A stretch of 44,264 bases of DNA, taken from the sequence record PV637039.1. One strand, given 5' to 3'. This document shows, piece after piece, positions 25,256-25,285 of this stretch. Below the pieces are notes generated by a model. The model was not told the DNA's origin, ran no database searches, and saw nothing but the letters and a program-made list of their open reading frames with translations. Every line of letters starts with the position of its first letter. Position 1 is the stretch's first letter. Origin of the DNA: Escherichia phage vB_EcoS_PS2. A program made the position numbers and the translations under genes.

Positions 25256-25285
25256 ACTATAGTGCAACCAACCTATTGGTTGCAA
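25256..25285 (-). promoter_or_regulatory. promoter with palindromic operator TGCAACCAA-N4-TTGGTTGCA
   Basis: Minus strand reads TTGCAA-18 nt-TATAGT; perfect inverted repeat TGCAACCAA CCTA TTGGTTGCA at 25263-25284. Confidence 0.45.

Follow-up and report, generated by a model that had tools for sequence, protein, structure and literature searches.

A dispersed asymmetric box in the promoter-like sites of Escherichia phage vB_EcoS_PS2 and a candidate zinc-ribbon reader

Introduction

At positions 25256–25285 of the genome of Escherichia phage vB_EcoS_PS2 (record PV637039.1), a leftward promoter-like site holds two copies of a short word that recurs at other promoter-like sites of the same genome. 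This locus raises the question of what the word is for and which protein reads it. The window considered here is the whole stretch of 44,264 bp, a complete virulent siphophage genome of the Dhillonvirus type. Most of it matches Shigella phage EP23, Sodalis phage SO-1, JL1, SSL-2009a and many E. coli isolates at 90–93% identity, and its gene order is that of EP23 and SO-1. Dhillonviruses and related phages are common among therapeutic and model coliphages, and some belong to the BASEL collection. A literature search on transcription timing in Dhillonviruses and relatives found nothing, and searches on the motif, on Dhillonvirus promoters or transcriptomes and on the protein module in phages returned no prior description.

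The explanation that best accounts for the comparative evidence, and that we regard as probable, is that tGCAACCAAY is the operator box of a phage-encoded regulator, most likely a 57-amino-acid zinc-ribbon protein. The resulting map, with 21 sites, 11 predicted promoters, a single candidate regulator and specificity variants that occur in nature and differ by single bases, is open to experiment.

Sequence, abundance and placement of the box

The pooled logo is a compact asymmetric 10-mer, tGCAACCAAY, with flanks that are not conserved. Exact copies of GCAACCAAT number 15 against 0.51 expected from dinucleotide-preserving shuffles (maximum 3), the 8-mer GCAACCAA occurs 20 times (2.1 expected, shuffle maximum 7) and the 7-mer core 23 times (5.7 expected). 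CAACCAA is invariant in the window copies, and the base that completes TGCA is present in only about 9 of the 23. The count of 21 boxes permits one mismatch and includes judgement by context; the near-copies are GCAACCAAC at 25264 and 42678, GCAACCACT at 26936, GCGACCAAT at 29506 and GCAACCAAG at 34076 and 34092. Non-coding DNA, which makes up 6.5% of the genome, contains 16 of the 20 exact 8-mers, and three of the four coding copies fall within the final codons of a gene or within a short open reading frame (ORF) upstream of another gene. The original prediction had listed copies of this word, all of which are present in the sequence; the copy it placed at 40942–40952 lies about 9 bp away, at 40934–40942. 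A genome-wide count against shuffled controls and a test for intergenic enrichment were among the checks it named, and both return a strong excess.

Boxes are single or paired, in either orientation, at spacings of 11–31 bp. Most pairs are direct, with spacings of 12–31 bp, and a perfect palindrome occurs at one site only, so the dyad symmetry expected of a dimeric repressor's operators is not found. That palindrome, TGCAACCAA-CCTA-TTGGTTGCA at 25263–25284, had been described as a perfect operator; it is exact in the sequence and is not the archetype of the element. Footprint alignment of the window, EP23, SO-1 and the more distant LM40P1 shows that the boxes are invariant in the four Dhillonviruses as surrounding bases diverge. 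At 25256–25285 the second box is inverted in three of these phages and is direct, 17 bp away, in LM40P1, which indicates that boxes are selected as single units and not as a dyad.

Fixed registers within promoter-like sites

An association with sigma70-like promoters had been noted before, and it proves sharper than first described. When 86 boxes from five lineages are pooled and -10-like hexamers are recorded on the strand reading TTGGTTGC, the hexamers peak at box offsets -4 (14 cases), +10 (10) and +27 (13), compared with about 2 per offset, a 5–7-fold excess. At offset -4 the box covers the 3' end of the -10 element and the start site, at +10 it lies in the spacer and abuts the -10, and at +27 it provides a TTGCAw -35 with a spacer of 17 bp. 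The pattern is sharp in both Dhillonvirus genomes and partial in Klebsiella phage VLCpiS11a and Edwardsiella phage eiAU, and control words in the same test give no pattern.

Within the window, one or two boxes fall between -41 and +3 at each of eleven predicted sigma70-like sites. Three of them (37132, 34114 and 42671) combine a strong TTGACY -35 with a spacer box that reads along transcription; at the remaining box sites the box serves as the -35. Two predicted box promoters stand directly at terminators (26961–26905 and 42671). Promoter-like sites without a box also exist, most clearly the divergent pair at 37205–37280. On inspection, boxes in the spacer and start-site registers have no -10 of their own at +27, suggesting that they behave as operators and not as additional -35 elements.

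Occurrence in other phage lineages

Building a motif and scanning related phages, a further step proposed with the prediction, recovers the same word at the top in other lineages. In an unbiased k-mer scan, GCAACCAA/ATTGGTTGC ranks first or nearly first in all four Dhillonviruses and likewise in Edwardsiella eiAU (23 copies, 1.9 expected), Klebsiella VLCpiS11a (13, 1.5 expected) and Serratia phage Otaku (12, 1.7 expected). The same scan finds the word at background level in Salmonella phage SE1, Enterobacter phage phiEap-2, a Kagunavirus, Jerseyvirus SETP3 and Pantoea phage AH01. In phiEap-2 a one-substitution variant, CAGCCAACA, stands at analogous places (9 copies, 1.5 expected), and SE1 and TS6 show it marginally. 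The box is thus common to at least four phage lineages, with single-substitution variants in others. The word had been proposed as a phage-specific regulon operator: the operator part is supported by enrichment, intergenic placement, registers, footprints and conservation, and the phage-specific part falls, as at least four lineages share the box.

A scan of IMG/VR for paired boxes returned mainly chance matches and coding tandem repeats. It also showed an iteron-type cluster in contig L099 (2750–3180), in which 12 copies of gatGCAACCAATtaggcgg are interleaved with GAAGCAACCAGTT within about 430 bp. That contig has no proteins in common with the window, and the ORFs beside the cluster have no informative Pfam hits.

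A zinc-ribbon protein as the candidate reader

Phyletic profiling followed by all-against-all ORF clustering over 10 lineages singles out one protein family. Its member in the window, a 57-aa zinc-ribbon protein (29299–29472, - strand) with a CxxC...CKxCR pattern and then a basic helix, is the candidate box-binding regulator. The family is present in seven of seven lineages with any box variant and in none of the three box-less lineages, in a comparison of about ten lineages that are not fully independent, and it is the only family so distributed. The box variants (GCAACCAAY, GCAACCAGA, CAGCCAACA and AAACCAACA) follow the zinc-ribbon sequence type: identity is 56–63% in the GCAACCAAY lineages and 46% with CAGCCAACA. 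In Smarc3 and TS6, box and zinc ribbon correspond as predicted. Three binders had been suggested at the outset, and this comparative evidence favours the zinc-ribbon protein at 29299 over the HTH (helix-turn-helix) protein at 37307, which occurs in Dhillonviruses only, and over the phosphoesterase at 42872, rejected as a binder because the box-bearing eiAU, VLCpiS11a and Otaku lack it.

Metagenomic contigs L137–L139 extend the association to a distant background. Their polymerase is 23–28% identical to that of the window and their primase-helicase is of the DUF5906 type, and their zinc-ribbon protein is 65% identical. Pairs of GCAACCAG flank the zinc-ribbon gene (7–8 observed, 0.7 expected, nearly all intergenic) in the layouts seen in the window: a 12-bp pair upstream of the gene, an inverted pair, and, downstream, a 17-bp pair with a -10 and then a terminator behind it. 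In L142 and L143 the sole intergenic AAACCAACA cluster, two direct copies and one inverted, is immediately upstream of the zinc-ribbon gene, and L141 and L140 also have boxes just upstream of it. Boxes lie in the gene's own promoter in the Dhillonvirus, VLCpiS11a, Otaku and Smarc3. Searches with the 57-aa protein by tblastn and word index returned known lineages only.

The C-terminal segment of the protein is very basic, and the window, EP23 and SO-1 share one and the same protein sequence (100% identity). An AlphaFold2 model built with no alignment predicts two short zinc-ribbon hairpins, then a confident helix at residues 38–56 (mean predicted local distance difference test score 78.6). An exhaustive HMMER search found 914 relatives, mostly of 200–700 residues with 2–9 tandem copies of the module, and multi-module relatives match the Pfam Stc1 domain PF12898 at 30–60 bits (cut-off 24.8). 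In a Foldseek search of the model, Stc1 (2luy) ranked seventh with E=2.4, which is not significant. Fission-yeast Stc1 is a protein–protein adaptor and is not known as a DNA reader, and we know of no member of this Stc1-like zinc module family with demonstrated DNA specificity. With these features, DNA binding by the zinc-ribbon protein is plausible.

Public records label the gene variously as 'Lar-like restriction alleviation protein', 'HNH endonuclease', 'kilA anti-repressor' and 'meiotic chromosome segregation protein', and in eiAU it is uncalled; family scans support none of these labels. The Lar model PF14354 in Pfam does not match the 57-aa protein, for which the Lar name is a PHROG label only. 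In L145 a genuine PF14354 gene adjoins the zinc-ribbon gene as a separate gene.

Among the relatives, tandem arrays (P0004, P0013, P0015 and others) repeat a zinc ribbon and a K/R-rich helix in each copy, and such arrays are found in hundreds of proteins rich in lysine. A relative of 2046 aa joins the zinc module to helicase, HEAT and winged-helix domains.

Proposed mode of action

We consider it highly probable that the box is a cis-regulatory operator with a phage-encoded reader, and probable, with somewhat less assurance, that the zinc-ribbon protein is the factor that reads it. We infer box binding by this protein, its monomeric mode and the direction of its effect from the arrangement of sites and genes. 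Each asymmetric box would be read independently, by a monomer or a loosely coupled pair. On the predicted host-type (sigma70) promoters the boxes always fall within the RNA polymerase footprint, at the -35, in the spacer beside the -10 or across the -10 together with the start site, so that the polymerase and a box-bound protein would be rivals for the same DNA. Such competition makes repression the most likely net effect, although our confidence that repression is the main one is evenly balanced. Negative feedback would act on the regulator's own promoter, and the accumulating protein would turn down most early and middle promoters together.

Several observations weigh against this reading. 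The variant CAGCCAAC in SE1 and TS6 is marginal (5 copies, 1.5 expected, with shuffle maxima of 5 in SE1 and 6 in TS6), and the register geometry is weak in the GC-rich Otaku. In SE1, TS6 and phiEap-2 the 260 bp upstream of the zinc-ribbon gene contain no box, and the incomplete independence of the lineages limits the phyletic association. A Pfam scan gives the 57-aa protein no hit at E<=0.01, and Foldseek gives its model no significant structural neighbour. Its PHROG label is 'Lar-like restriction alleviation', and in PHROGs it aligns to the zinc-binding N-termini of endonuclease VII and HNH families, so that another job is possible. A literature search returned no binding, start-site or expression data for these phages. 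Boxes stand in nearly every promoter class, including one directed towards terminase, which is odd for a simple early shut-off, and boxes serving as the -35 of promoters behind terminators fit an activator equally well.

A bolder form of the proposal can be put forward only tentatively. The 57-aa protein might represent a new sequence-specific DNA-reading module, a zinc ribbon with a basic helix that is distantly Stc1-like, which would act as a monomer on a 9-bp box across a genome-wide regulon, with one-base box changes that would track changes in the protein across phage lineages; the arrays of 2–9 modules might then be modular readers of long nucleic acids. Should the zinc-ribbon protein prove to be the reader, it would rank among the smallest sequence-specific transcription regulators known, and this would be the first function for a widespread zinc module mislabelled 'Lar-like', 'HNH endonuclease' or 'KilA anti-repressor'. 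Box and protein could also be used in phage engineering, as a compact orthogonal repressor/operator pair.

Alternative explanations

The alternative that survives best, though we judge it unlikely, treats the box as a positive promoter element. A phage factor, the zinc-ribbon protein or another, would activate 'middle' promoters behind terminators where the box is the -35 and would repress the TTGACY promoters with a spacer box, forming a one-protein switch from early to middle expression comparable to phi29 p4 or T4 MotA. In this view the box takes the place of a weak -35 (TTGCAw). Thirteen of the 86 boxes yield a -35-like TTGCAw exactly 17 bp from a -10, the sites at 26961–26905 and 42671 lie at or behind terminators with the same layout in L137, and two promoter classes, TTGACY with a spacer box and box-as-(-35), can indeed be seen. 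At several box-as-(-35) promoters, however, another box covers the -10/+1 (40415, 6228) or occupies the spacer, and binding at such positions normally blocks RNA polymerase. Boxes point either way relative to transcription, and the genes downstream of the two promoter types show no clear split into early and late.

That the box is a replication-origin iteron of the helicase-primase or another initiator, with the promoter copies reflecting initiator-mediated control, is improbable. The idea draws on box density, which in every lineage peaks at the 3' end of the helicase-primase gene or past it (6 boxes across about 530 bp in the window, 9 in eiAU), on the SO-1 GenBank record, which annotates this stretch as a repeat region, and on the asymmetry of boxes that occur in both orientations with one inverted pair, as in DnaA boxes and Rep systems. 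Six boxes fall within 39923–40423, directly past the helicase-primase gene. Past this gene, however, each lineage combines the conserved box with a second repeat family, a word of its own (GCGGGACA in the window; GCGGACAAC, ACTCGCAAAA and TGTGCGGAA elsewhere), and it is this second family that acts like true initiator iterons. In the window the GCGGGACA(R) iterons number 17 against 1.5 expected. In contigs L137–L139 the box coexists with a primase-helicase of the unrelated DUF5906 type, AH01 lacks the box although its helicase-primase is close, and most boxes are distant from the helicase-primase region and locked to promoter registers. We infer that the variable family contains the initiator's iterons and that the boxes of that region are promoter or regulatory sites.

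The helicase-primase itself was rejected as the reader: it has no spare DNA-binding domain detectable by sequence, and the box also occurs with the unrelated primase-helicase.

A reader supplied by the host, either a transcription factor common to Enterobacterales or RNA polymerase itself, has little probability. Close relatives on the same or similar hosts lack the box (the Kagunavirus on E. coli, SE1 on Salmonella), and the box varies from lineage to lineage in step with a phage gene; these facts stand against the retention of the word across Escherichia, Edwardsiella, Klebsiella and Serratia phages whose proteins are only 30–60% identical, which a host reader would explain. The half-site of CytR is the octamer GTTGCATT and that of PdhR is ATTGGT, and the box partly resembles both. 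The CytR core TGCA is nonetheless not conserved (only about 9 of 23 boxes), and the TTGGT-N3-ACCAA dyad that PdhR needs is absent. Sites of CytR, PdhR, NtrC, IHF and sigma54 were compared with the logo, and none fits.

It is very unlikely that the 109-aa HTH protein (37307–37636) is the binder, even though it is an early gene product encoded next to the helicase-primase and beside the early divergent promoters, and its C-terminal HTH resembles sigma70 region 4 and HTH_23. The protein is confined to Dhillonviruses, and an unrelated Cro/XRE protein occupies its position in the box-bearing eiAU, VLCpiS11a and Otaku and also in SE1, which is box-less or has a variant box.

A link between the box and the phage Dam-family adenine methyltransferase (25945–26430; PF05869), as target or methylation-sensitive switch, appears largely refuted and retains almost no probability: the enzyme occurred in all GCAACCAAY lineages of the first ten and was absent from the other five, but it is of the Stx-phage/PY100 Dam family, whose characterised members target GATC, it is found at 38–50% identity with no box enrichment in T145P1, CobraSix and GZ7 outside the supergroup, and L137–L139 have boxes with an MT-A70 enzyme instead.

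Individual box sites

Structural genes occupy 56 to about 24044 on the + strand, a leftward block of replication and nucleotide-metabolism operons runs from 37135 down to 24069, and a rightward block from 37307 encodes the HTH protein, the helicase-primase, small genes, lysis genes and the phosphoesterase. The site nearest the left end, at 6228–6263 on the - strand, is TTGCAC(6263–6258)-18-TATATT(6239–6234) and is predicted to drive the 5884–6213/Nmad5 genes. Its boxes, at 6242–6250 (-23 to -15) and 6228–6236 (-9 to -1), are both GCAACCAAT on the + strand. At 22318–22351 (-) a TTGCAA-17-AATACT site takes its -35 from the box at 22343–22351. The tail-fibre gene (22368) and a small leftward gene (start about 22291) diverge from this region.

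The site at 25256–25285 (-), with which this analysis began, is TTGCAA-18-TATAGT upstream of gene 24687–25208(-). One box, 25275–25283(-), overlaps the -35 and the other, 25264–25272(+), lies in the spacer, and together they make the perfect 22-bp palindrome.

At 26905–26961 (-) a TTGCAT -35 (26956–26951) and a TATGTT -10 (26933–26928) are accompanied by boxes at 26953–26961 and 26936–26944 (GCAACCACT), 17 bp apart. Transcription is predicted to begin within the 5' arm of the terminator hairpin 26926–26905. This promoter-in-terminator layout recurs in an unrelated lineage, at 10194–10260 of L137, and suggests that upstream read-through ends at 26961–26905 and that the genes beyond depend on the box promoter. 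As predicted for this site, transcripts from upstream would terminate and those from the box promoter would form no hairpin.

The promoter-like site of the zinc-ribbon gene, TTGCTG-17-TATAGT at 29493–29526 (-), has boxes at 29518–29526 (-40 to -32) and 29506–29514 (GCGACCAAT, -28 to -20), inside the last codons of the VRR-NUC gene. Upstream of the single-stranded DNA-binding and polymerase genes, the site TTGACC-17-TAGATT (34076–34114, -) carries a spacer box at 34092–34100 (-21 to -13) and another at 34076–34084 (-5 to +3), both reading GCAACCAAG along the direction of transcription. The leftward early promoter-like site, TTGACT-17-TAATAT at 37104–37132 (-), has one spacer box, 37111–37119 (-22 to -14).

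Right after the helicase-primase stop codon lie three GGCAACCAATGCG-subtype boxes, all on the - strand (39923–39931, 39977–39985 and 40012–40020), the first two of which are embedded in a longer repeat, AAGATTAAATTTTGCGCGCATTGGTTGCC. A possible rightward site within 39923–40046 reads TTGCCG(40017)-18-CATAGT(40046). Further along this non-coding region, a lone GGCAACCAATGCG-subtype box at 40294–40302 (+) is conserved in all four Dhillonviruses. The rightward site at 40384–40423 (+), TTGCAT(40389–40394)-17-TAGATT(40412–40417), is upstream of gene 40446; the box at 40384–40392 is its -35 and the box at 40415–40423 lies over the -10/+1.

A TTGCAA-17-TACATT site at 40932–40960 (+), inside ORF 40746–41015 and upstream of gene 41088, contains the box 40934–40942, which is conserved as neighbouring codons vary. 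The last site, TTGACC(42671)-18-TATACG(42695) at 42671–42709 (+), directly follows the terminator at 42641–42662 and has one box in the spacer (42678–42686) and one at the start site (42701–42709). It is upstream of genes 42730 and 42872 and, past the genome end, of the terminase genes.

Duplicated origin-like repeats

Two places in the window, 11824–12207 between the tail-chaperone and tape-measure genes and 40060–40230 after the helicase-primase gene, carry both the GCGGGACA repeats and a long hairpin block. The shared hairpin block of about 50 bp is CCCAGTCTTTCAGACTAGACGGGGGTCAAyGGCCCCCCTCGTCTGAGACTG. In the SO-1 GenBank record the corresponding stretches are repeat regions A and B.

Other features of the genome

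Beside the box pairs at 6228–6250 and 25263–25284 stands a second word, TGCAAG(C/T)GAATTTTGC(G/A)A, at 6259–6277 and 25283–25300. At 6271–6298 it holds the -35 of a conserved box-free site, TTGCGA-16-TAATAT, that points into the scaffold, capsid and tail genes, and the two 6228–6250 boxes are about 59 and 73 bp upstream of the predicted start of this site. Set among the rightward structural genes, a leftward 'moron' pair at 5080–5844 (-) encodes an Nmad5 protein (nucleotide modification associated domain 5, E=5e-59) and would be driven by a predicted box promoter. Nmad5 genes near the zinc-ribbon gene are also found in L137, L138 and L142.

The stretch 37233–37143 (-) holds a strong box-free promoter-like site, TTGAAA-17-TAATAAT with TG, and, about 55 nt past it, an intrinsic terminator (GCGCCG...CGGCGC then T8). 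A short early RNA is thus predicted just upstream of the 37132 box promoter and would contain the near-box ATTGGTTA. Within the leader of about 190 nt of the leftward early operon, the 52 nt at 37020–37071 are 92–94% identical to unannotated DNA of T1-like phages that are unrelated to this one (slyngel, JLBYU16, BEBK14, KMI8). Rfam, a transfer RNA scan and RNA folding of the leader at 37100–36905 gave no hit and no unusual fold.

With 28 copies (2.9 expected), the octamer ACGGCAGC equals the box in over-representation. It shows a strong strand bias of 23 (+) to 5 (-) whatever the gene strand or reading frame, with positions such as 1506, 2329, 3835 ... 44098 on the + strand and 18113, 22535, 24907, 27582 and 29325 on the - strand, and is also over-represented in phiEap-2, AH01 and VLCpiS11a. 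It is possibly a polar signal, Chi-like or orienting packaging or translocation.

Relation to known systems

Dispersed asymmetric operators under one phage regulator are of a known kind; the box, the cross-genus regulon and the candidate reader appear new. The C1 repressor of P1 offers a close parallel. Its short asymmetric operators are scattered genome-wide and overlap promoters, singly or as overlapping or inverted pairs, and through them the one protein controls many operons, its own among them. The boxes described here are likewise short, asymmetric, dispersed and promoter-overlapping, single or paired. P1, however, is a temperate phage in which C1, with 283 aa, represses lytic growth as the lysogeny repressor from a 17-bp operator, whereas the present phage is virulent, the box is 9–10 bp, and the candidate is a 57-aa zinc-ribbon protein with no detectable similarity to known repressor folds.

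MotA of T4 reads a 9-bp asymmetric box as a monomer at several tens of promoters that keep the sigma70 -10, some of which serve replication origins. The 13 boxes that supply a -35-like element 17 bp from a -10 recall this arrangement. The MotA box, however, has one position (-30) and one orientation, and the present box occupies three registers in both orientations, with many copies over the -10/+1. No MotA or AsiA is annotated in the relatives; only selected proteins were scanned, and no search was aimed at MotA/AsiA homologues.

Like DnaA boxes and the iterons and operators of plasmid Rep proteins, the box is an asymmetric 9-mer found in either orientation, in a cluster beside a replication gene and also in promoters, and as in Rep systems, direct copies accompany one inverted pair. 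It differs from them in that a separate, lineage-specific iteron family is present and the box does not track the initiator family. The two copies of the origin-like region, about 16 kb apart, recall P4 ori/crr.

The p4 protein of phi29 is a small protein with sites over the -35 of host-type promoters, and it represses strong promoters and activates those with a poor -35. It binds as a dimer to inverted repeats in a single control region, in contrast to the roughly 21 dispersed sites of the phage described here.

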